A DNA stretch of 29,101 bases from a virus. Its lineage: Duplodnaviria > Caudoviricetes. Made by a program: the position numbers and the translations under genes. The stretch covers positions 1-29,101 of the IMG/VR virus record IMGVR_UViG_3300016643_000068; one strand, written 5' to 3'. Below the pieces are notes generated by a model that made no database searches, was not told the origin of the DNA, and saw only the letters and a list, made by a program, of their open reading frames with translations. Shown here one piece after another: positions 11,351 to 29,101 of this stretch; within the stretch, counting starts at the first letter, position 1; each line of letters starts with the position of its first letter.

Positions 11351-11719
11351 TTATTGGTCACCCTGCGCGTCGGCCTTCCGCCGGCCGCAGCACCCTCGCC
11401 GCGTCGCGCTAGGCGCGCTAGGAGCCGCTCTGGCGGCCTCGTCGCTCGACCCCACCGAGACGGCCACCCACGCGCCGCGAGGGCAGGACTCGCCCGCCAC
11501 GCGGATCTTCGCGCCCGTGAAGCAGCCGCACGCCGTGCAGCGCCCGCAGTCGTGATCCTCGCACGCGAGGCACGCGGCCCAGCGCGCGCGCACGACCTCG
11601 GTCGGCGCAGCCTGCACGCCGAGCGCGGCCTTCGCCACGCCGACCGCGCCACGCACTAGGTCGCCGACGGTAGGGCTCTGGTCGCCGTCTCCGCGCTTCC
11701 ACCGGGTCGTGTGGCTCAT
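11351..11719 (-). CDS. 122-aa Cys-rich metal-binding protein (DUF6171-like)
   Basis: R..AC..C...CGRC..CGC...AK......CP...W pattern; ATGA-coupled to the upstream Cys-rich gene. Confidence 0.65.
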   Translation of the reverse strand: MSHTTRWKRGDGDQSPTVGDLVRGAVGVAKAALGVQAAPTEVVRARWAACLACEDHDCGRCTACGCFTGAKIRVAGESCPRGAWVAVSVGSSDEAARAAPSAPSATRRGCCGRRKADAQGDQ

Positions 11720-13101
11720 GGCGTGATCCTATTCACGATGATCTCGTCCGGAACGCCTCGAGCGATCGCCGCCTCGCGCGTGATCGCGTTGCATCCGCCC
11801 GGGGTCGTGCAAGTGCACGCCGCCTCATCCTCGACCGTCGAGAGCGAGTAGACAGTCGCTGGGTCGGCCTCGGTGTAGAGGCTCCACGCGATGCAGTCCG
11901 TGCCGTCGAGCGGGGTCACGCCAGGTGTCTTCCGGTACTGAATCGCAGAGACGAGCGGAGGCGTTGCGAGCGTGATCGTGGCTCGGTCGAGCTTGAGCAC
12001 GCGAGACGCTCCCGCACTCGTCGAGGTCGAGTAGAGACGCGGGTCGTGGCAGCCACGGTAGTACGCCGTGATCGTGTTCGAGATGCTCGTCGGCCCGGTG
12101 AGATTCCCGTACGCCGTCTGGCTCGTCCATCCCATCGTGTAGTACCGCTGCCAGACCTTGAACTGGATCGCGACCTCCGTCTGGCAGCAGCAGTCGGCGA
12201 ACGTGCACGCGCCGCATCCCGCGCTCGTGCCCATCGTCGTGCTCGAGCATGATCCCGAAGTCGGGCCGTCGGCGGCCGCGCACGCCGTAGTCGAGCGCGT
12301 GCGATGCCGATACACGCATCCCGAGGTTGAGATCGTCGGGTTGCCGTCGGGCCCGTTCGTGCTCGAGGTCAGCGACGCGACCCAGCCGCTCGAGGCCGTC
12401 GATCCCGCCCAGGTGAATCGGATGGTGCCGGCCGACGAGTAGGGCGCTTCGACCGAGAGCCCGCCCTGAACGCGGGTCTGGTAGATCTGCCACGGATGGC
12501 AGCATGAGCCCGAGCCTCGGAACTGAATCTCGCCGATGTCATCGGTGAGCAGTCGGCACTTCGTGCTCGATGTAGTCGCGATGCACGGGTAGGCGTTGCC
12601 CGGAGGTGAGCAGCCATACGAGACGGGATACTCGCAGACGTTCACATAGGGAACGATGTCGGCCCAGATCACGAGCGCCGTCTGGTTGTTGAGATCGAAG
12701 CCGCAAGTCGTGGTCTCGCGCTCGACGCCGATGTCGAGGATGTAGGCGTTCGCTGCGTTAATCGGCGTGAGCGTGTTCGAGTTGCAATAGATGTAGGTGC
12801 TCGTCGGGCTGACACACGCCCCGCCCACATTGGTGCATCCCGGCGTGCTTGAGAAGTCACCATCGCATCGACCGCAGTAGAGGCCGTGCACGATGTCATC
12901 GTCATCGATGTACCCCGTGACATCATCGACCACGATCTGCACATCGTTGCATCGTTGATCGACTTGCACCTTCCCCGTGCTGCCCGGAAAGACGATCTCG
13001 TAGATGAACTGGCTGCCCGTCACGGGCGAGTAGCCCTCGGGCCCAGCGCCACACGCGCACGGGCTCACGACGCAGCAGCACGCCCGCGACGGGTTCAGCA
13101 C
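11716..13101 (-). CDS. 461-aa Cys/Thr/Ser/Gly-rich protein, putative virion or host-recognition protein
   Basis: About 31 Cys counted by hand, including CCC twice. Beta-strand-like composition, no signal peptide, located at the end of the late operon. Confidence 0.7.
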   Translation of the reverse strand: MLNPSRACCCVVSPCACGAGPEGYSPVTGSQFIYEIVFPGSTGKVQVDQRCNDVQIVVDDVTGYIDDDDIVHGLYCGRCDGDFSSTPGCTNVGGACVSPTSTYIYCNSNTLTPINAANAYILDIGVERETTTCGFDLNNQTALVIWADIVPYVNVCEYPVSYGCSPPGNAYPCIATTSSTKCRLLTDDIGEIQFRGSGSCCHPWQIYQTRVQGGLSVEAPYSSAGTIRFTWAGSTASSGWVASLTSSTNGPDGNPTISTSGCVYRHRTRSTTACAAADGPTSGSCSSTTMGTSAGCGACTFADCCCQTEVAIQFKVWQRYYTMGWTSQTAYGNLTGPTSISNTITAYYRGCHDPRLYSTSTSAGASRVLKLDRATITLATPPLVSAIQYRKTPGVTPLDGTDCIAWSLYTEADPATVYSLSTVEDEAACTCTTPGGCNAITREAAIARGVPDEIIVNRITP

Positions 13102-18843: not shown

Positions 18844-19299
18844 TCAGGTCGAGGACGTGAAGCCGCCCGTGACACGGATCGTAAGGTCGGCTTCGACTGC
18901 GCCATCGACTGCGGCAGAGACATTGAACGAAGTCACATAGCCGGCGAATGCCAACTCGAAGCCGCCCGTGCCCGTGTTCGGACCGAAGCGGATCTTGAAG
19001 TTGCGATAGTCGGCACCGTTGGCGTAGGTGTAAGGATTGAGCGCGCCGTTGTTGGAGGTCGTTCCGAGTTCGGCTGCCGCGTACGCGGGAGCGAAAAGCG
19101 AGATCGAGATCGTGCCGCTGTCCTTCGTGCCGCCGATGAAAGACTTCACCGTAGTCGAAAGAGCAGAAGTGTCGATCTCTGCGATCGAGATCCCATCGAC
19201 GGAGATCGACTTGATCTCGCCGACGGCGGTGAATGTAGCGCCACCGGATCCGGTGGTCGTTGCATACGAGAACGTCGAGCCGGGTGCGACGATTGCCAT
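18844..19299 (-). CDS. Tail tube protein paralog 2
   Basis: GEIKSISVDG...EIDTSAL...KSFIGGTKDSGTISI...FAGYVTSFNV.AAVDG...LTIRVTG is a lambda/HK97-like tube pattern. Confidence 0.8.
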   Translation of the reverse strand: MAIVAPGSTFSYATTTGSGGATFTAVGEIKSISVDGISIAEIDTSALSTTVKSFIGGTKDSGTISISLFAPAYAAAELGTTSNNGALNPYTYANGADYRNFKIRFGPNTGTGGFELAFAGYVTSFNVSAAVDGAVEADLTIRVTGGFTSST

Positions 19300-19302
19300 G
19301 TG

Positions 19303-19692
19303 TTAGCTCCAGGTGATCTGCGAGGTGAGCTTGATGGTCGCTGACGCAGTCACGGCCCCATCCTGCTCGGCAGAGATCGAGAGGTTTGTGGCGATGCCGT
19401 TGAATGAAGCGTCGAGCGATCCGCCAGCGAACGAGATCGAGAATGAGGTGGCGGTAGCGTCTCCGCTAGCCGGCATGATATTCGCATCGAATCCGCTCCA
19501 GTTAGCCGGGGCGAAAAAGTCGATGGTCATCGTTCCGGCATCGAGAGCGCCCATCAGGAAGGTCTTGTTTGAGTCGGTCAGGCTCGTGATGTCAATCTCG
19601 GCGAGCGAAGATCCGCCGACCGATATGTTCGTCACCTCACCGATCGAGACGGCGTTAGCGGTGAGCGTTGTGTTGTATGCGGAAAGTGCCAT
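19303..19692 (-). CDS. Tail tube protein paralog 1
   Basis: GEVTNISVGG...EIDITSL...KTFLMGALDAGTMTI...FNGIATNLSI.AEQDG...ATIKLTS aligns end to end with the next gene. Confidence 0.8.
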   Translation of the reverse strand: MALSAYNTTLTANAVSIGEVTNISVGGSSLAEIDITSLTDSNKTFLMGALDAGTMTIDFFAPANWSGFDANIMPASGDATATSFSISFAGGSLDASFNGIATNLSISAEQDGAVTASATIKLTSQITWS

Positions 19693-20729: not shown

Positions 20730-21061
20730 CGCACCTCCCGCACGCGGAGCGTGATCGTCTGCTGCCGATCGTCGTACTCCATCTCGCCCTCGATCTCGAA
20801 CGTGCGGCCGAGGCTTTCGAGTCGGCTCGTGTTCGAGAAGAGCGTCCGCTCCTTCGCTCGGATCATCACCTCGTAGGTCCGTGCGTGCGTCACGCGCTCG
20901 CGCTCGACGGTCTCGGTCGCGTTGGTGCCCTTGAGGTAGCCCCAGATCGTGCTGCCCGTCGAGAGGAACGTCGGCACGTTCTGGCCGAACTCGTCGAGTT
21001 CCGTGGAGCGGTTCAGCACCACGAACGGCGTGCGCATGAGACCGGATCGGACGCGCCTCAT
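20726..21061 (-). CDS. Head closure protein (SPP1 gp16-like)
   Basis: GLMR...DEFG...IWG...GRTFEI pattern and synteny. Confidence 0.75.
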   Translation of the reverse strand: MRRVRSGLMRTPFVVLNRSTELDEFGQNVPTFLSTGSTIWGYLKGTNATETVERERVTHARTYEVMIRAKERTLFSNTSRLESLGRTFEIEGEMEYDDRQQTITLRVREVR

Positions 21062-21678
21062 GCCATCCTCGGGACAGAGAACATCCGAGCCAGCGCCTCG
21101 ACCCCGTGCGGCACCTCGGAGAGATTCACCTCGGAGCCAGTCTCGCGCGCGATGTCGTACCAGTAGCCGACGGCCATGAGCACGGCCTGTCGGAGCGCCT
21201 GGGGCACGCTAGCCGCCGTCGCGCCGTAGCCGGCCGTATAGCCGATCGTGACGCTCGAGAGCCCGGCGTAGAACCGGGTCGCGGGCCACGCCGAGATGAT
21301 CGCCGGGGCGATCACGATCGAGCCCGGTAGTCGCTGCGTCTCGACCGTGTACGCGCTCGCCGAGAGCGTCTGCGTCGTGCCGGCGGTGTCCACATATGTG
21401 ATCGAGGAGACCGCCGAGACCTTGCCGGCGGGCAGGATGATCTCGTAGTGAGCCGGGAAGCGATCAAGCTTGAGCGTGTAGGTGCGCTGCACGAGCGGCC
21501 GATTGGCGAGCCCCTCGACATAGTTGCGAGCCGCCACGATCAGGCTCGTTATGAGCGAGTCCTCATCCGAGTGCGTGACTCGCAGATGTGCCTTCGCCTC
21601 GGCGAGCGTGACGGGCTCGACGGCGGGGCTCGTCGCCTCGACATTCGAGAGATAGGTCGCTCCGTCAACTGCCAGCAT
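21058..21678 (-). CDS. Head-tail connector (HK97 gp6 / phiE125 gp8-like)
   Basis: EPVTLAEAKAHLRV...ED.LI..LI.AAR...YTAGYG...VPQALRQAVL...WY. Confidence 0.88.
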   Translation of the reverse strand: MLAVDGATYLSNVEATSPAVEPVTLAEAKAHLRVTHSDEDSLITSLIVAARNYVEGLANRPLVQRTYTLKLDRFPAHYEIILPAGKVSAVSSITYVDTAGTTQTLSASAYTVETQRLPGSIVIAPAIISAWPATRFYAGLSSVTIGYTAGYGATAASVPQALRQAVLMAVGYWYDIARETGSEVNLSEVPHGVEALARMFSVPRMA

Positions 21679-21868: not shown

Positions 21869-21883
21869 GGTGTCCTCCTAGTG

Positions 21884-21912
21884 AAAGAGGGCGAGCCTTG
21901 CGGCCCGCCCTC
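21884..21912 (-). terminator. Intrinsic terminator/attenuator after major capsid gene
   Basis: GAGGGCGGGCC-GCAA-GGCTCGCCCTC-TTT: an 11-bp stem with a GNRA loop and a short U tract. Confidence 0.7.
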
Positions 21913-21935
21913 CTTGCCCATCATCACCCATCCGA

Positions 21936-23219
21936 TCAGCTGTTGTCATCCTTCAGCGCGCGGAAGGCATCGATGCGGGTCACCTTGGCATCGAGACGAG
22001 TCTCGCCGAGGTAGCCGATCTGTCCGTTGCCGGCGTAGAGTTCGTTCAGCACCTGGATGCTGATACCAGTCCGCTGAGCGACCACCATGTGCTGGAAGTC
22101 GCCGATCACGGCGTGGATCTGGTCGTTGACGTTGCCGAAGTTCGGAGCCCACGGCGTGACGTACACCGGAATGCCGAGCAGGCGGTCCGGGGTGCCAGCC
22201 TGGAACGAAGGCGCCCACAGGTAGTCGAGAGCGAGGTGGCTGCCAGATCCGGTCTGCTTCTGCGTGAGTTGACGGCACGCGGTGTAGAACGACTGCGAAG
22301 CCACGATCGCGCAGGACGGGCTCTTCAGGTACTTCATCGGCAGGCTGTAGACCCAAGTGATCAGTTCATCCGGGGTCAGCGTGCCATCGGTGGCGAGCGT
22401 CGTGGCGCTGGCCGTGAGCGCAGTACCGTCCACGCTGGCATTCTTCAAGCCCTGCGGCTTGTTGGTGCCGTTGCCGTGCCACAACTGATACTCGATCGAC
22501 TGCGCGAAGAGACGGCCCATGCGCTGGGCGACCATCGACTCGACCGAGAAGTCAGCGCCGCGAGCAGGAGCGTCCTGCACGAGTTCGCGCGAGACCTTGA
22601 CCACTCGCCGCAGCGAGTTGCCCGTGAAGGTGATGTTCTTGAAGGTTGGCGTGTATTCATCGACCGACCCGGCTTCACCAGACCATCCCTCGGTGTCGAG
22701 TTCGCTAGAAGCGAAGTCGCCCTCGAGCGTGAAGTTCGTGGTGAAGTTGCCCACGTCGATCTTGCGGCAGAGGTTGTAGATCGAGGTCTCCTGCTCGATC
22801 GACTTCTGGAGCTGGGCATAGAAGCCAGCCGATGGAAGGTACTGACCATCGCCCGTGCCGGCGGCGATCGCGCGAGTATCGAAGTCACGGCGGAAGCCGT
22901 TCTTCAGGTAGTCAGCGAACCGAGTCTCGTAGGCTTCGCCAACGACCGGGGCGAGGCTGCGCGACTCGTGACGAGCGACGGGAGCCTCGCGCTCGACCAC
23001 GACCACATTGTGCGAGCCCTTGGCGGCGCGCGAGTTCAGGTCGGCCATCAGATCGCGGCGCTTGGCGAGAGCGTCATACTTCGCCTTCTTCTCCTCGATC
23101 TGCTTCTCCATCGCGGCGAGTTCTTCGCCCTCGGCCGAGGCCATCACCTCGACCATCTTGGTCATCTCTGCGTAGAGCTCGCCCATCTTCTCGACGAGTT
23201 CCTTGTATGCGTCCATCAT
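21936..23219 (-). CDS. Major capsid protein (HK97 fold) with N-terminal coiled-coil delta/scaffold domain
   Basis: Coiled-coil N-terminus, VSRELVQDA, GNGTNKPQGL, LLGIPV, GDF, and ELYAGNGQIGY...RLD. AGGAGG SD and a downstream terminator. Confidence 0.92.
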   Translation of the reverse strand: MMDAYKELVEKMGELYAEMTKMVEVMASAEGEELAAMEKQIEEKKAKYDALAKRRDLMADLNSRAAKGSHNVVVVEREAPVARHESRSLAPVVGEAYETRFADYLKNGFRRDFDTRAIAAGTGDGQYLPSAGFYAQLQKSIEQETSIYNLCRKIDVGNFTTNFTLEGDFASSELDTEGWSGEAGSVDEYTPTFKNITFTGNSLRRVVKVSRELVQDAPARGADFSVESMVAQRMGRLFAQSIEYQLWHGNGTNKPQGLKNASVDGTALTASATTLATDGTLTPDELITWVYSLPMKYLKSPSCAIVASQSFYTACRQLTQKQTGSGSHLALDYLWAPSFQAGTPDRLLGIPVYVTPWAPNFGNVNDQIHAVIGDFQHMVVAQRTGISIQVLNELYAGNGQIGYLGETRLDAKVTRIDAFRALKDDNS

Positions 23220-23235
23220 CTGTTTCCTCCTGGTA

Positions 23236-24306
23236 TCAGGATGCTGCCTTGATAGCGACGATCGCCTTGTTGTCGATCAGGTTCCCGCCCACGCGGACGG
23301 TCGCTCGAAGAACCACTTGCCCAGTCGCCGCGCGCACTTCGTTCAGGCGTTCCACTTGGAAGCCGCTCGAGTGCATCGCGAGCACATAACGAGAAAGATC
23401 CACGGCCACGGCACCGCGTTCGCTCGCGGCATCGTATTCGGCCTGGTAGTTGCTGTACGAGTTGATGAAGGCCGGCAGTCCGAACACGCTGCCGATGGAT
23501 CCCGGAGTTGTTGACGCTTGCAGGAACGCAGTAGTCGGAACGAAGCCGTCGTTGGCTCCCTTGCGATTGAAGATCCAGACGGCATTCATCATCGAGGCCG
23601 GCCGCAACTTGATCAGCGCGGCCGGATAGTTGTATCCGTTGATCGCGAAGTTTGACGCATCCTCAAAATGCACCTCGTTCACAGGAGAGAACGCATCCGA
23701 CGAGTTGTAGAAGAGCGGGTAGTTGAGGACACCCTGGCACTCCTTCTTGCTGTTCGTGTTCAGCGCAGGATCTCCGACGAGAATCTGGCGCTCGACTTCC
23801 GTCTGCAACTTGCGGATCAGGAAGTCGCGAAGGACAGTTTCGGCGCTCTCGCTTCCGATGGAGTCTTCGATCAGTTCCTTCGAGACCACCATGTTCACAC
23901 CGATCTCGTGCAGATCGATGGCACGGGTCTCGTAGTTCATGTCGTAGTTTGTCGGCGCTGCGCCAGTAATGCGCCATCGCGGCAACTCGAACGAGCCCGC
24001 CTCGTCCACGCGAGTACCCTCTTCATCCGAGGTCATCCGGTCCCCGGTCTCGAAGGCATCGTTGTAGTGATTGATCGTGAACTTGTTGCTAGTCACGGTG
24101 ACCTTGCGAACGCGAGAGAGAACCCACGACGTTTGCATCGAGTCCGTGAAGAACGAGGCCCAGTCCCGCGGAGCCAGGCTAGACGATGCACCCGTGACTC
24201 CGCGCGCCTCGTAGATCGTCTGCGCGTCAGCCGATGAGATCGCGCTCGCGCCACGCGCGAGGTATCGAAGGAAAGCCGCCCTGCTGCTCTGGTCCATGTC
24301 TTGCAT
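23236..24306 (-). CDS. Second HK97-fold capsid protein lacking the delta domain
   Basis: VSKELIEDS, ILVGD...CQGVL, NAVWIFN, VFGLP, and ERLNE...GQV..RA..RVGG. Confidence 0.8.
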   Translation of the reverse strand: MQDMDQSSRAAFLRYLARGASAISSADAQTIYEARGVTGASSSLAPRDWASFFTDSMQTSWVLSRVRKVTVTSNKFTINHYNDAFETGDRMTSDEEGTRVDEAGSFELPRWRITGAAPTNYDMNYETRAIDLHEIGVNMVVSKELIEDSIGSESAETVLRDFLIRKLQTEVERQILVGDPALNTNSKKECQGVLNYPLFYNSSDAFSPVNEVHFEDASNFAINGYNYPAALIKLRPASMMNAVWIFNRKGANDGFVPTTAFLQASTTPGSIGSVFGLPAFINSYSNYQAEYDAASERGAVAVDLSRYVLAMHSSGFQVERLNEVRAATGQVVLRATVRVGGNLIDNKAIVAIKAAS

Positions 24307-24330: not shown

Positions 24331-25224
24331 TCAACGCTTGGGGCCAACCCAGAAGCGCCGACGGACGATCCGTGGCGACTGGTGCTCCCCGCTCCAGATG
24401 TCGAACGACCGCCGATCGACCACGAGATCCGTCGCCGGGTTAGCCGGGAAGGTCACCGCCGACACCTCGTGAAGTTCCACGTCCTCAATGATCCGGTGCA
24501 CCTTGCCGTCGCGCTCCTCGAAGCGATCGCCCTTCACGATGAAGCCGAACGACATCGCCGAGACCACGCCCGAGCGCACCGCGATACGCGCATCGCGCCC
24601 CGCCTGGGTGTCGATGGGTTCAAGCTCGACGAGCAGCCCGCGCTCGTCCTCGATGAGCCGCAGGCTGCCAGCCGTCGTGCGGCCGATCGGCAGGCTCGCG
24701 TCGTGGTTCCAGAGGGCCACCACATCGGGCTTCTCGCGCAGCGTCCGCTCGAATGCGCCGCGAGCGATGATCTCCTGCCCGTATCCGATGGGATACGCCG
24801 TCTCGGTCACGCTCGCGTAGCCGCGCAGCACCTCGCGCCCCGCCTCGACCTCGGCCCGTGCTTCCAGACGCTCGCCATATCGACGCTCCATCGTGACCTC
24901 CTGCGCCCTATCGAGGCGCTCGAGAATGCTCTCGGCGAACGAGCGACCGGGATCTCCACCCCAGAGCGCCCACGCGATCCGGCCGGCGGACGGGAATCCC
25001 GGCTCGCCCGGCCCCCACCCTTGGCCCTGCTTGTCCACCTCGTGCCGGGCGAAGTAGGAAGCCATGCGGCGCACCGTGTCCTCGGACAGAGCCCGCCCGT
25101 TGGCGATATCACGCGCTCGAGCGACCCCGACCTCGGTGCCGCCCCGGCCATGCTCACGCCGCCAGGCGAGCCCACGCTCGGCCTCCTCGCGCATCGCCTT
25201 CGTGGGCTCGAAGGAGTCAGCCAC
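24331..25224 (-). CDS. HK97-family prohead protease with ~110-aa extra N-terminal domain
   Basis: LRGYASV, GAF, LWNHD, GRT, MSFGF and LHEVSAVTFPA. Confidence 0.9.
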   Translation of the reverse strand: MADSFEPTKAMREEAERGLAWRREHGRGGTEVGVARARDIANGRALSEDTVRRMASYFARHEVDKQGQGWGPGEPGFPSAGRIAWALWGGDPGRSFAESILERLDRAQEVTMERRYGERLEARAEVEAGREVLRGYASVTETAYPIGYGQEIIARGAFERTLREKPDVVALWNHDASLPIGRTTAGSLRLIEDERGLLVELEPIDTQAGRDARIAVRSGVVSAMSFGFIVKGDRFEERDGKVHRIIEDVELHEVSAVTFPANPATDLVVDRRSFDIWSGEHQSPRIVRRRFWVGPKR

Positions 25225-26956
25225 CCGAGCCCTCCTTGCACATCGCGATCGCGATCGCCACGGCCTGCTCCTGCGGGTAGCCCTCGTCGAGCAGTTTCGG
25301 GATCTTCGTCTCGACGCACTTCTGGGTCGCCTCGTCTAGATCCGCGTACCGCTCGGCCTTGCGTGCGAAACGCCCCTTGGAATCTCGAGCGGCCGGAGCA
25401 GTCGCGGGAGCCAGCGCCGGCACGGCCGCAGGCGTGATCGGACCAAACATCTCCTCGATGGTCGAAGCCGCGATCGCCGGGAATGCAGCCTTCGCGATAG
25501 CGATAGCGGTATCCTTCGGCAGTTCCCCGGTCTGCACCTTGGCGGCCAGATCGACGAGCGAGGCCACCTGTGCCCCGTTGAGAGCAGTATCGGCTACTGG
25601 CTCGCCGGAAGCGACGGCCTCAATAGCATCAGTCGGTTCTTCGGAATCATCGACCAAAGCGAGCGGTGCGGCCTCGACTGATGCGCCTGTGATCGGCGAG
25701 ACATCGCCAGACTTCCCGACGTTCGGATCGACGATCGCCAGATTCACGGGCGCGCGTGCCACATCGCCGCCATCGATCGGCGCGTAGTTCTCGCGCTCGC
25801 GCACTTCGTTGATCGTGAGGAAGCCATTGTTGAGCGCCGTCGAGTACGCCGCGAAACGCGACGAGAGATCGCCACGCAGCAGCGCGTCGAAAGAGATATG
25901 CGTCTCGATCGGCTCGCCGGAGCGCACGAGCTTGCGCGCGCACTCCTCCTCGAAGCGGCTCGCCCAGTTCGAGAGGCAATGCTTCACGAACTCGGCATCG
26001 GCCTGCTCGGCGCTCGCGTATGAGGTCTTCGTCGCGTCGCCGACCATATGCACCGGGACATTGAACGCGGCCGCGATCTGCGATCGGCAGAAGGAGCGCA
26101 ACTCGACGAGTTTTGCCTCCTCGGGATTCACGCTCACGCTCTCCCACGAGTAGCCGCTCTCGAGGATCGCCACGCGGCCGGCGTTCTCCGCGCCGCCCGT
26201 GATCGCCTGCCACGACTGCCGCAGACGCTTCAGAGCCTCCTCGGTGATCGTGCCCGCGACCTTGATGATCCCGGCCGGCCGTGCGCCGTTGCGGAAGAAC
26301 GAAGCGACGAACTTCTCGGCCTCGAGTTCCACGCCGATGATGTTCCGCACGAGATAGATCGGGGTCTCGCCGAGGAGACCGTCGAGGCTAGGCGCGCGCA
26401 GGTGGAAGATGTCGTAGCCCTGGTAGACCTCGCCGCTCGTGCGGCGATCCCAGCGCGCCGAGTTGTAGGTGTAGACGGGCATCCCGTCGGCACCACGCGA
26501 GACCTCGACGCTGTCGGCGCGCAACTTGTGCAGGCCGACCACGCGGCCGGAAGCGTCGCGCTCGATCACGCTATAAGCGTTCCCGTAGAGGAGGCAGTCG
26601 AGCAGCATCGACTCGCGCCAGACGAGCGCGCCCATGTAGTCGTTCGGCTCGACATTCAGGAGCCGATACAGCGGATGCTCTCGCGCCGGCACCGGGATTC
26701 CGCCCTCGCGGCGCATGACGCGCCACTCCATGCGAGCCACCGACTGCGAGATCAGCCGCGTGCAGGCGTAGACCGTCGGAGCCTCCCTCGCGGCCTCCGG
26801 CGTGATCGAGCGCCCCGTATCGGCATAGGACGAGATGTACGCCTGCGCCCCGCCCGGCGGCTGGCCGATCGGCGTGCGATCAACGACAGCGCGCTCCTCC
26901 ATCACGGGAGCGTCTGCGGGCTGCGGCTGTCGGCGAAACCAGTCAGTCAGAGCCAT
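25217..26956 (-). CDS. HK97-family portal protein with ~170-aa C-terminal extension
   Basis: VYAC..LI, HPLYRLL..EPN, LLYGNAY, FFRNGARP.G, IAAAFNVP and TINEVRERE. Start reassigned to MALTDWF at 26956. Confidence 0.92.
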   Translation of the reverse strand: MALTDWFRRQPQPADAPVMEERAVVDRTPIGQPPGGAQAYISSYADTGRSITPEAAREAPTVYACTRLISQSVARMEWRVMRREGGIPVPAREHPLYRLLNVEPNDYMGALVWRESMLLDCLLYGNAYSVIERDASGRVVGLHKLRADSVEVSRGADGMPVYTYNSARWDRRTSGEVYQGYDIFHLRAPSLDGLLGETPIYLVRNIIGVELEAEKFVASFFRNGARPAGIIKVAGTITEEALKRLRQSWQAITGGAENAGRVAILESGYSWESVSVNPEEAKLVELRSFCRSQIAAAFNVPVHMVGDATKTSYASAEQADAEFVKHCLSNWASRFEEECARKLVRSGEPIETHISFDALLRGDLSSRFAAYSTALNNGFLTINEVRERENYAPIDGGDVARAPVNLAIVDPNVGKSGDVSPITGASVEAAPLALVDDSEEPTDAIEAVASGEPVADTALNGAQVASLVDLAAKVQTGELPKDTAIAIAKAAFPAIAASTIEEMFGPITPAAVPALAPATAPAARDSKGRFARKAERYADLDEATQKCVETKIPKLLDEGYPQEQAVAIAIAMCKEGSGG

Positions 26957-28614
26957 AGGATCCCTCGGTCGGCATAGGCGCTCGACTGTTGTACCGCCGG
27001 GGCCGCGTCGAGTGCCACCGCTAGGGCCACGATTCCGGCCACCACGGGGTCGATCTTCTCGGTGCTCCGGCGCTTGCTGGGCCTCGGGTTCGAGTTCGCG
27101 TCGAGTTCCACGACGCAGTTCGACATCGCCCAGGTGAGGATCGGGTTCCCGTCGTGCCGCAGCCGGCGGTTCGTTACCATCGCCTCCCACCGCTTCGTCG
27201 GCTCGGCCATGTAGTAGAACGACTGCGGCACGCGCTTGAGCGTGAGCCCGTCGTTCTCCAACTGCTGCGCGAGCCCGCTGGCGTTGTAGGGGTCATAGCC
27301 GATCGCTTGCACCTTGTTCTCGCCGACGAGCCGGAGCACCTCCTTGCGGACGAACTCGTAATCGGTCGCGTCGCCGGGAGTGAGCACGAGATGCCCCTGT
27401 CGGGACCAATCCAGATAAGGCACCTTGTCGCGCTTCTGCCGGCGCTGCGCCCCCTCCTCGGGCGCGTAGGCCCACGAGCGCACCCAGCACTCATCGCGAT
27501 CGACCCAGACCGCCGTGAGGGCCGTCAGGTCGCTCGTCTCGCCCAAGTCGATCCCGAGGTAACACGGCAGGCCGGCCAGACGGGAGAGATCGAACTCCTG
27601 CTTGCACGCATCCCAGTCGGCCATGCGCAGCCATCGGTTCGAGGCGCTGACGTGCTGACAGAGGTAGTAGGTGCGAAACGGGGTCTCCATCGAGGGCTGA
27701 TCCTGGGCCTCGCGGCATCGCTCCGCGTAGTAGCCCTCGTGCACCGTGTGCCCGAGGCTCGGCGCGCACTTGCGCCAGGTCTCCGGGCTCGTCCAGTCAT
27801 CGCCATCGTCGGCCGAGTAGATCACGGGCAGGAAGTACGGATTGTCGATCACCCGGTCGCAGACCTTCTTCGAGTAGTCGAACATCTCGTACTCGAGGCT
27901 CTCGCGCAGCGTGCCGGCCGTCGTGATCGTCACGAGCATCGGCTGTCGCCTCGCGCCGACGCTCGTCTCGATCGCCTCCCAGAGCTCGCGGCGGTTCTCC
28001 ATCGCGTGCACCTCGTCGAAGATCGCCGCGCTCGTGTTCAGGCCGTGCGCGCTCGGTGCTTCGCTCGACATCACCTTGTAGACCCCGGCCGTGGTCGGCA
28101 CGATGATCCGGTGCTGGTAGACCTCGGTGCGCCCCTCGAGCATGGGCTCGGCTCGCACCATGCGCTTCGCCGCCTCGAGGCATCGGCCCGCCTGAGCGCG
28201 ATCGTTCGCGATCGAGATCACCTCGGGCGTTGGCTCATCGTCGGCGAGCAGGTGGTACAGCGCGAGCGCCGCTCCCATCTCGGTCTTGCCGCACTTGCGC
28301 GGGATCAGGATGTGCACGCGCCGATAGCGCCGCGTCCCGTCCGGGCGCATCCACCCGTAGGCGTTCGCGATCACGGCCTTCTGCCACGGCAGCAGCACGA
28401 ACGGCTGCCCCGCCCAGGTGCTCGTCGTGAGCTTGCACGCGCTCTCGATGAAACGGATCACATGGAGCGCGGCCTTCTCGTCGAAGGTGCAGTTGCCGGC
28501 CGTCGCGATCGCGTCATAGCCGGGGATCGTGTTCCACTTGGCGGCCGGATGCTCGGTGGCCTTCTTGGCGCGAGGCTTACGCTCGGCGGGTGAAGATGTC
28601 TTCGACCTTGGCAT
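26947..28614 (-). CDS. terL: Terminase large subunit
   Basis: LLPWQ, IPRKCGKT (Walker A), IFDEVH (Walker B), ITTAG, LGIDL and KIDPVVA. Start placed at MPRSK (28614), which is uncertain. Confidence 0.95.
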   Translation of the reverse strand: MPRSKTSSPAERKPRAKKATEHPAAKWNTIPGYDAIATAGNCTFDEKAALHVIRFIESACKLTTSTWAGQPFVLLPWQKAVIANAYGWMRPDGTRRYRRVHILIPRKCGKTEMGAALALYHLLADDEPTPEVISIANDRAQAGRCLEAAKRMVRAEPMLEGRTEVYQHRIIVPTTAGVYKVMSSEAPSAHGLNTSAAIFDEVHAMENRRELWEAIETSVGARRQPMLVTITTAGTLRESLEYEMFDYSKKVCDRVIDNPYFLPVIYSADDGDDWTSPETWRKCAPSLGHTVHEGYYAERCREAQDQPSMETPFRTYYLCQHVSASNRWLRMADWDACKQEFDLSRLAGLPCYLGIDLGETSDLTALTAVWVDRDECWVRSWAYAPEEGAQRRQKRDKVPYLDWSRQGHLVLTPGDATDYEFVRKEVLRLVGENKVQAIGYDPYNASGLAQQLENDGLTLKRVPQSFYYMAEPTKRWEAMVTNRRLRHDGNPILTWAMSNCVVELDANSNPRPSKRRSTEKIDPVVAGIVALAVALDAAPAVQQSSAYADRGILWL

Positions 28615-29047
28615 CCTTCGCGGCCTCCTTCGCCGCACCGACTCTCGCACGACCGACCGGGGTCATGCCGAACTCGCTCATCATGCGCCGCAGTCGATCG
28701 CCATGCTCGGCGAGTACCGCGCTCCACGGGTTGCGCTTGACGGTCACACGATCGCCGCCCTCGACGCGAATCACCTCGCCCTCCTCGAGCAGTCGAGCGC
28801 GCGCCACGAGATAGCGCGACCAGGTGTCGCACATGATCGCCAGCGCGTCGCGGTCGGCCGCGCTCATCACCTTCATGGCAGCGATGCGCGGGAGCCAGTC
28901 GTGCCACGCCGCGCGTGCGACATCGTCGAGCCACGCGGGACACTCTGGTAACGCCTCCTCGCGAGGCGGCTCGCCCTTCGATCGGGACGATGCGCGCCAC
29001 GATCCCGACAGTTTCAGCGCCGCCGCCGGCTTCGGGTTACGGCCCAT
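28577..29047 (-). CDS. terS: Terminase small subunit (P27 family)
   Basis: MGRNPKP..LK.L.G, P.WL...A..AW, NP, and EFGMTPVGRAR. GGAGGA upstream of the ATG at 29047. Confidence 0.9.
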   Translation of the reverse strand: MGRNPKPAAALKLSGSWRASSRSKGEPPREEALPECPAWLDDVARAAWHDWLPRIAAMKVMSAADRDALAIMCDTWSRYLVARARLLEEGEVIRVEGGDRVTVKRNPWSAVLAEHGDRLRRMMSEFGMTPVGRARVGAAKEAAKDAKVEDIFTRRA

Positions 29048-29101
29048 CGGTCCTCCATGCCCCGTTTTTGGCGAAATATCGGGGGTCTGCGTTCTTGCCA
29101 A
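29048..29101 (-). other. Non-coding end upstream of terS; probable right part of cos region
   Basis: Synteny HNH-cos-terS across the window junction. Confidence 0.45.

Follow-up and report, generated by a model that had tools for sequence, protein, structure and literature searches.

The virus DNA analysed in this study (a linear record of 29,101 bases with an estimated completeness of 84%, in the following referred to as the window) encodes a genuine two-capsid system that is old and under selection. Two adjacent genes on the minus strand code for capsid proteins of the HK97 family: capB (23236..24306), whose product is an HK97-fold paralog without the scaffold coiled coil, and capA (21936..23219), whose product is the major capsid protein and has a complete scaffold (delta) domain. 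CapB is probably a dedicated penton protein, which would form capB-only pentamers at 11 five-fold vertices, and capA likely provides the hexamers. In tailed phages, a single protein nearly always makes up both hexons and pentons. The two-capsid strategy itself is already known from T4, Jabs, Nocturne116 and Ccm. What is new is a large, widespread and apparently independent family whose second protein has kept a scaffold stub and occurs in exchangeable alleles, which, by description, sets it apart from the Jabs proteins. No description of the capB/capA family was found in the literature, subscription journals being mostly beyond the search.

Both reading frames, which the initial annotation had assigned to the HK97 capsid family, were present on the minus strand. 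PF05065 was matched by capB with 61.7 bits and by capA with 131.2 bits (cut-off 24.2), TIGR01554 with 76 and 194.7 bits (cut-off 27.5), and these two proteins are the only PF05065 matches in the record. The HK97 motifs quoted for the assignment were found at positions 11, 141 and 319 of capB and at positions 100, 209 and 389 of capA. The two proteins are also as highly diverged as had been claimed; profile-profile alignment yielded 17% identical amino acids over 298 columns (probability 96.7%), and BLASTP aligned the last 86 residues only (24% identity). The 356-aa reading frame of capB exists, but translation probably begins at the second ATG (24297), which results in a protein of 353 amino acids, because the ribosome-binding motif lies directly against the first ATG and 9 nt before the second one, and because the capB homologs begin at the position of the latter.

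In line with the initial assignment, capB was modelled as an HK97 fold. In this model, whose confidence is middling (mean pLDDT 62), all fold elements tested (E-loop, spine helix, P- and A-domains) are present; the top Foldseek matches were HK97-type capsids, and the best VIA match was 9gyi_B (Z 14.0, rmsd 5.3, 241 aligned residues). A phmmer search of the PDB sequences with capB gave only amylase matches, which are attributable to chance. The model of capA (mean pLDDT 41.6) was confident only in the N-terminal helices 2-26 and 32-68 (pLDDT ~75-85) and too poor outside of them, so that the fold of capA rests on sequence matches; its nearest solved sequence relative is Rcc01687 of RcGTA. The A-domain of capB (approximately residues 196-305; 23392..23721, minus strand; boundaries set by the analyst from model and alignment) is the most variable part of the protein as well as the predicted self-association surface. 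It is similar in size to the A-domain of capA, and the E-loop of capB is longer than that of capA. Regarding two insertions that had been quoted for capB, residues 197-208 represent a true insertion of 8-9 residues, which some alleles have and others do not, but residues 110-121 are not one; they align with a conserved E-loop motif of capA, and the extra E-loop residues immediately precede this motif. Beside these, an E-loop insertion of ~80 amino acids was observed in 12 of the 22 loci of a distant subgroup (L169-L180, with a capB of 416 aa, e.g. L172:5001-6248). It matches modules that occur in structural proteins of the virion, in tail fibres and in baseplate proteins, and L181-L190, which are close to the insertion-bearing loci, are without it.

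CapB had been described as scaffold-less. This holds for the coiled coil: the coiled-coil scaffold of ~70-100 N-terminal residues, which is present in capA (residues 1 to ~95), is missing in capB. An in-frame scaffold further upstream was ruled out in the window, where a stop codon in the same frame precedes the first ATG by 8 codons. The last ~30 scaffold residues, however, are kept. This stub (residues 4-35; 24202..24297, minus strand) comprises two predicted helices (2-18 and 25-33 in the capB model), and the first ~32 residues of capB align with residues 99-120 of capA in the profile-profile comparison. It contains 12 invariant columns, including E33 and R35, which are invariant in 33 of 33 aligned capB homologs, and its dN/dS is 0.20. 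A candidate maturation site is located after Arg35, with ~32 residues before it in capB versus 116 before the putative site in capA; cleavage there would result in mature proteins of 321 (capB) and 311 residues (capA). The capA profile places the corresponding motif on residues ~66-90 of the RcGTA capsid, of whose chain 297 of 386 residues are modelled, which fits a cleavage near this motif. Since the searched text of the RcGTA paper (PMC7296036) does not mention cleavage, the sites in capB and capA are regarded as putative.

The scaffold of HK97 consists of two parts, the coiled coil (2-66) and a helix-turn-strand element (76-103) lining every capsomer, and the coiled-coil towers, contributed by the surrounding hexons, bind the portal, as far as described in the available text (PMC10275583). 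According to the accessible parts of the D3 report (PMC12749128), the D3 scaffold is split in the same way, and its distal part trimerizes at the local three-fold sites, including those between pentons and hexons. Judged by position, capB appears to keep the distal part of the scaffold and to have lost the coiled coil. It would thereby show which part of a delta domain is dispensable for a subunit (the coiled coil) and which part is kept.

The capB alleles are reassorted against the capA alleles. In L002, L041 and L059, capA is 93-96% identical, with an identity of 14-30% in the A-domains and 64-84% in the P-domains of capB; the converse was found for L046 and L059, which share 93% in capB and 66% in capA. 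Furthermore, portal and protease 92-99% identical to those of the window are accompanied by a capB of only 42-64% identity. Among 13 phages, the mean identity of P-domain and spine helix was 0.73 for capB and 0.81 for capA, and that of the A-domain was 0.37 for capB versus 0.70 for capA (all boundaries set by the analyst). Pairs of capB which are 77-98% identical in the N-terminal and P regions possess A-domains of only 31-44% identity, and therefore the domain itself appears to have been exchanged. The occurrence of very different capB A-domains beside a near-identical capA argues for capsomers that contain capB only.

Additionally, a complex model of three copies of capB (residues 36-356) obtained a score of 0.45 (runs 0.45, 0.22 and 0.64; best control 0.01). 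Among reference cases, 20 of 30 solved pairs and 1 of 23 single chains attained this mark, a calibration that is rough for three copies with their own alignment. The runs showed a contact agreement of at least 65% and a pLDDT of at least 66, and the predicted interface connects A-domain to A-domain, head to tail, with confidence within residues 206-285. The model supports a self-association of capB via the A-domain; its score may stem from a resemblance to capsids of known structure, and it does not distinguish ring size, pentamer versus hexamer. Self-association model and allele reassortment together point to capsomers of capB alone. It is improbable in this light that capB is a minor component dispersed over capsomers that it shares with capA, where it would show a variable surface. 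CapB does retain the P-domain, the stub and the candidate cleavage site needed for such a co-assembly, and there are relatives with the optional virion-type E-loop module. Mixed capsomers, however, require A-domain contacts between capA and capB, and capB A-domains of 14-30% identity pair with capA A-domains of 87-94% identity; moreover, capB is modelled as associating with itself through this very domain.

The GC3 content of capA exceeded that of capB in 28 of 28 close pairs and in 16 of 19 distant pairs, which fits capA being the abundant protein. The strength of ribosome binding was discarded as a proxy of stoichiometry because it was inconsistent between the groups: capA had the stronger signal in most of the close pairs (22 of 28) but in a minority of the distant ones (7 of 19), so that only the close group fits an abundant capA, and in the window the two genes were near equal (capA -10.3 vs capB -9.8 kcal/mol).

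The assignment of the capB capsomers to pentons rather than to other capsomers was inferred from precedent and from the loss of the coiled coil that binds the portal. Each of the four solved two-paralog shells compared (Jabs, Nocturne116, SaPIbov5 Ccm and T4) has its pentons made of the paralog whose N-terminal domain is shorter, as far as the accessible descriptions reach. The pentons of D3, according to the available text, bear a coiled-coil tower (PMC12749128), so that loss of the coil is by itself no penton signature. The novelty that the initial annotation had seen in a two-protein shell was overstated, since scaffold-less penton paralogs are described from cryo-EM of the small siphophages Jabs and Nocturne116 in the portions of these reports that are available; the precedent of T4, which it had named, stands. 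Neither the scaffold stub of capB nor the exchange of its alleles had been noticed there.

The mycobacteriophage Jabs, a siphophage, is similar in layout as described in the accessible text (10.64898/2026.07.24.740622): its adjacent HK97 capsid genes are ~18% identical, the long protein MCPh, with an N-terminal maturation domain, forms the hexons, and the short protein MCPp, without this domain, forms 11 pentons. MCPp differs in its length of 257 aa and its reduced A-domain, and it is modelled from residue 3, with no cleaved stub in this description, whereas capB, compared by description, is full-sized, carries a stub and exists in exchangeable alleles. In Nocturne116, a small c2-like siphophage of Lactococcus (PMC13595954, as far as accessible), the paralog VP is encoded adjacent to MCP, is ~24% identical to it, possesses no scaffold or protease domain and forms pentamers only. 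In contrast to capB, which is encoded ahead of capA and whose E-loop is longer, VP (220 aa) is encoded behind MCP; its E-loop is smaller, its N-arm is almost absent, and the phage has a prolate head with cross-links. The benefit of the second capsid protein is called unclear by the authors in this text.

T4 gp23 and gp24 share ~20% identity, and the cleaved N-terminal peptide comprises 10 residues in the vertex paralog versus 65 in the other protein; bypass mutations indicate that A-domain contacts decide between pentamer and hexamer (PMC9958956, accessible portion). T4 differs in being a large, prolate myophage whose scaffold core is separate and whose capsid proteins are of another family, whereas capB and capA belong to TIGR01554/PF05065. 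The protein Ccm of SaPIbov5, in the available description (PMC8569155), is an HK97 paralog of 24% identity with a shorter cleaved delta domain, which forms pentamers only, beside hexamers of the helper protein. Ccm is a satellite-encoded protein that redirects the capsid size of the helper, whereas capB is a fixed gene of a phage head operon and sits within a complete head-tail operon. The TIGR01554 capsids of the HK97/D3 type (PMC10275583, PMC12749128; accessible parts) have the layout of capA, i.e. coiled coil, distal scaffold, cleavage site at a basic residue and HK97 fold, but use one protein for hexons and pentons.

With its 17% identity to the adjacent capA over the 298 aligned columns and its shorter N-terminal maturation domain, capB shares features of dedicated penton proteins. 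A trimmed mature protein, with a smaller A-domain, E-loop or N-arm, is a feature absent in capB, and this mismatch in size with the pentons of Jabs and Nocturne116 counts against a close likeness. On the testable features capB seems to work like the known penton paralogs, and its membership in this class rests on the presumed vertex position. CapB-only capsomers could also occupy another special site, for example one hexon class, and set the size or shape of the head, and the evidence for homo-oligomers (model and reassortment) applies equally to this explanation. Two hexon classes exist in T=9 shells according to the accessible text of PMC12749128, and capB is full-sized and untrimmed for high curvature; nevertheless, the second paralog is a hexon class in none of the four solved precedents compared, as far as they are described, and such a role is considered unlikely.

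If capB is a dedicated penton protein, assembly may proceed as follows. CapA would nucleate on the portal via its coiled coil and build the hexons, as in HK97, and capB, without a coiled coil, would be excluded from nucleation near the portal. The capB rings would close by A-domain contacts between capB subunits, and the A-domain would need to fit only itself and could be exchanged as a whole. The conserved P-domain and the stub would connect the capB pentons with the capA hexons at the local three-fold sites, and the adjacent protease would cut the stub after Arg35 and the scaffold of capA after Arg116.

It may further be speculated, tentatively, that capB turns the vertex into an exchangeable module of the surface: eleven exposed pentamers would diversify and recombine, with the shell left untouched, and would offer a variable head-borne site for adhesion or docking. 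Whole A-domains and optional E-loop modules would in this case be swapped by recombination. In the accessible parts of the respective reports, gp24 of T4 contributes stability (PMC10580926), and the head spikes of RcGTA dock onto the A-domains of the pentons (PMC7296036). By analogy, stability and spike docking are two plausible uses for a variable vertex.

The order protease-capB-capA, whose conservation the initial annotation had proposed to check, was conserved in all informative loci. From the search with the capA profile, the best 80 of 100 loci were used, 10 of which lack upstream sequence. Among these best 80 loci, a capsid paralog was located directly upstream in 54 of 54 informative contigs with a capA identity of at least 37% (42 of 42 at 59% or above, one of them identical to the window protein, and 12 of 12 at 37-39%, some members of which were contained in the search profiles) and in 0 of 16 at 35% or below. 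Pfam independently confirmed the paralog in all four loci tested from the 37-39% group. A search of 1.84 billion representatives with the capB profile revealed further short capsid proteins. Three distant ones used as queries led to 33 loci, of which two end too early; in the 31 with downstream sequence, a capA-like gene of the full-length type (28-34% identity) always follows. The distant short proteins all start a few residues ahead of the same retained stub motif. The rule that capA relatives of 33% identity or less are single-capsid was rejected; it is true for the 16 in the capA search, but dual loci at 28-34% occur in the capB-led searches. One old origin of the short capsid proteins is likely. 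In quick trees they formed one side of a branch with SH-aLRT values of 99 (14 rows) and 100 (23 rows); the capB-type branches are longer than those of capA, which is a warning that the paralogs could group by long-branch attraction.

CapB is under purifying selection, as was to be checked according to the initial annotation. For pairs with at least 75% identity, which are not independent of each other, the medians of pairwise dN/dS were 0.11-0.30 for capB and 0.17-0.24 for capA, and the values of the single capB domains, A-domain included, were 0.19-0.28. Pairwise counts within alleles, at 0.22, gave no indication of positive selection for the A-domain of capB, and no capB domain gave any sign of dN/dS above 1 in a simple pairwise count. 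The absence or decay in relatives that had been named as an argument against a function was not observed: capB is conserved, and 39 of 40 full-length close copies on distinct contigs (window included) are intact, one being frameshifted. The frameshifts detected in capB of L066 (1236-2281) and in capA of L036 (7274-8534) are possibly assembly errors.

These data also bear on a role outside of the virion, for instance inside the cell as a factor in assembly or as a decoy, directed against host defences that sense capsids or satellites that hijack them. A conflict of this kind would fit the allele exchange and the faster evolution of capB in comparison to capA, but the constant placement of capB between protease and capA wherever a locus was informative, the complete HK97 fold with its kept candidate cleavage site and the lack of any domain with dN/dS above 1 in the simple pairwise count make it very unlikely. 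Even less credible is a decaying duplicate, which is largely refuted because the one frameshifted copy among 40 (L066) stands against 39 intact ones, a frameshifted capA, purifying selection equal to that on capA and the old age of the family, or a protein of separate small encapsulin-like shells, for which encapsulins rank high among the structural matches, as for any HK97 fold, but for which DNA packaging would presumably be impossible without coiled coil or portal contact.

With a dedicated penton protein as the favoured role of capB, the lineage represents a collection of many natural capA/capB pairs (capA identity 28-100%), including near-identical shells with very different second proteins. 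Such pairs make it testable what steers an HK97 subunit to the pentamer or the hexamer, and whether a vertex gene is retained for geometry or for surface variation.

Upstream of capB, the minus strand carries, in this order, the genes of the small terminase subunit (28577..29101; PF05119, E 1.6e-21), the large terminase subunit (26947..28650; PF20441 and PF03354), an HK97-type portal (25217..27190; PF04860 at residues 138-468, TIGR01537) and a prohead protease of the S78 type (24331..25224; PF04586, TIGR01543). The listed start of the portal gene is GTG, and the true start may be located further downstream. The portal has a C-terminal extension of ~160 aa (25217-25700, minus strand), which is rich in Ala and Pro, differs among the relatives and ends in a conserved short motif (phrog_2423). 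The protease possesses a His-bearing motif at 173-175 and a Ser-bearing motif at 224-228, which we take to be catalytic. Its N-terminal domain (24889-25224, minus strand) matches phrog_2859 at residues 6-112 and is without an assigned function; in L028, L063, L064 and L069, a domain of this type is encoded separately from the protease, ~1.6 kb upstream.

Right behind capA, a strong terminator-like hairpin of 14 bp was detected (21870..21935, minus strand; -31.6 kcal/mol; z -4.3 versus 200 shuffles), which is absent from the consensus terminator scan. It would end or attenuate the head transcript ahead of the connector genes. An RNA search gave two runs with small shares, both as contigs only; in X1, short pieces fell on capB, capA and the protease, which indicates neither transcription nor its level. 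No prophage copy was found in GTDB genomes, where 146 candidates led to one weak, unrelated match, and no close cultured relative was found in the phage collection, the best tblastn matches being less than 30% identical. L162, L172 and L188 contain ~1.3-1.8 kb of extra sequence between capA and the adaptor gene, in comparison to ~0.26 kb in the window, which may encode head decoration proteins.

Downstream of capA follow, on the same strand, a 67-aa reading frame, the head-tail adaptor as the first connector gene (21058..21678; PF05135, phrog_442), head closure, a 192-aa reading frame, the tail terminator, two tail tube genes, chaperones and a presumed tape measure protein of 627 aa without family match. 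Behind the tail genes, two cysteine-rich reading frames of 461 and 122 aa (11351-13101, minus strand) gave no Pfam match above the cut-off, and the 461-aa one gave no PHROG match either. The tail tube genes are tandem lambda-like paralogs of 129 and 151 aa (18844..19692, minus strand; PF16460 in both) with a mutual identity of 38%, and they indicate a siphovirus-type tail. In 32 distinct related loci covering the region from terminator to chaperone, two detectable copies were present in 16, three in 12, one in 3 and none in 1, and the tail tube alleles vary independently of their neighbour genes. This duplication represents a second instance of duplicated, variable virion surface proteins in the lineage.
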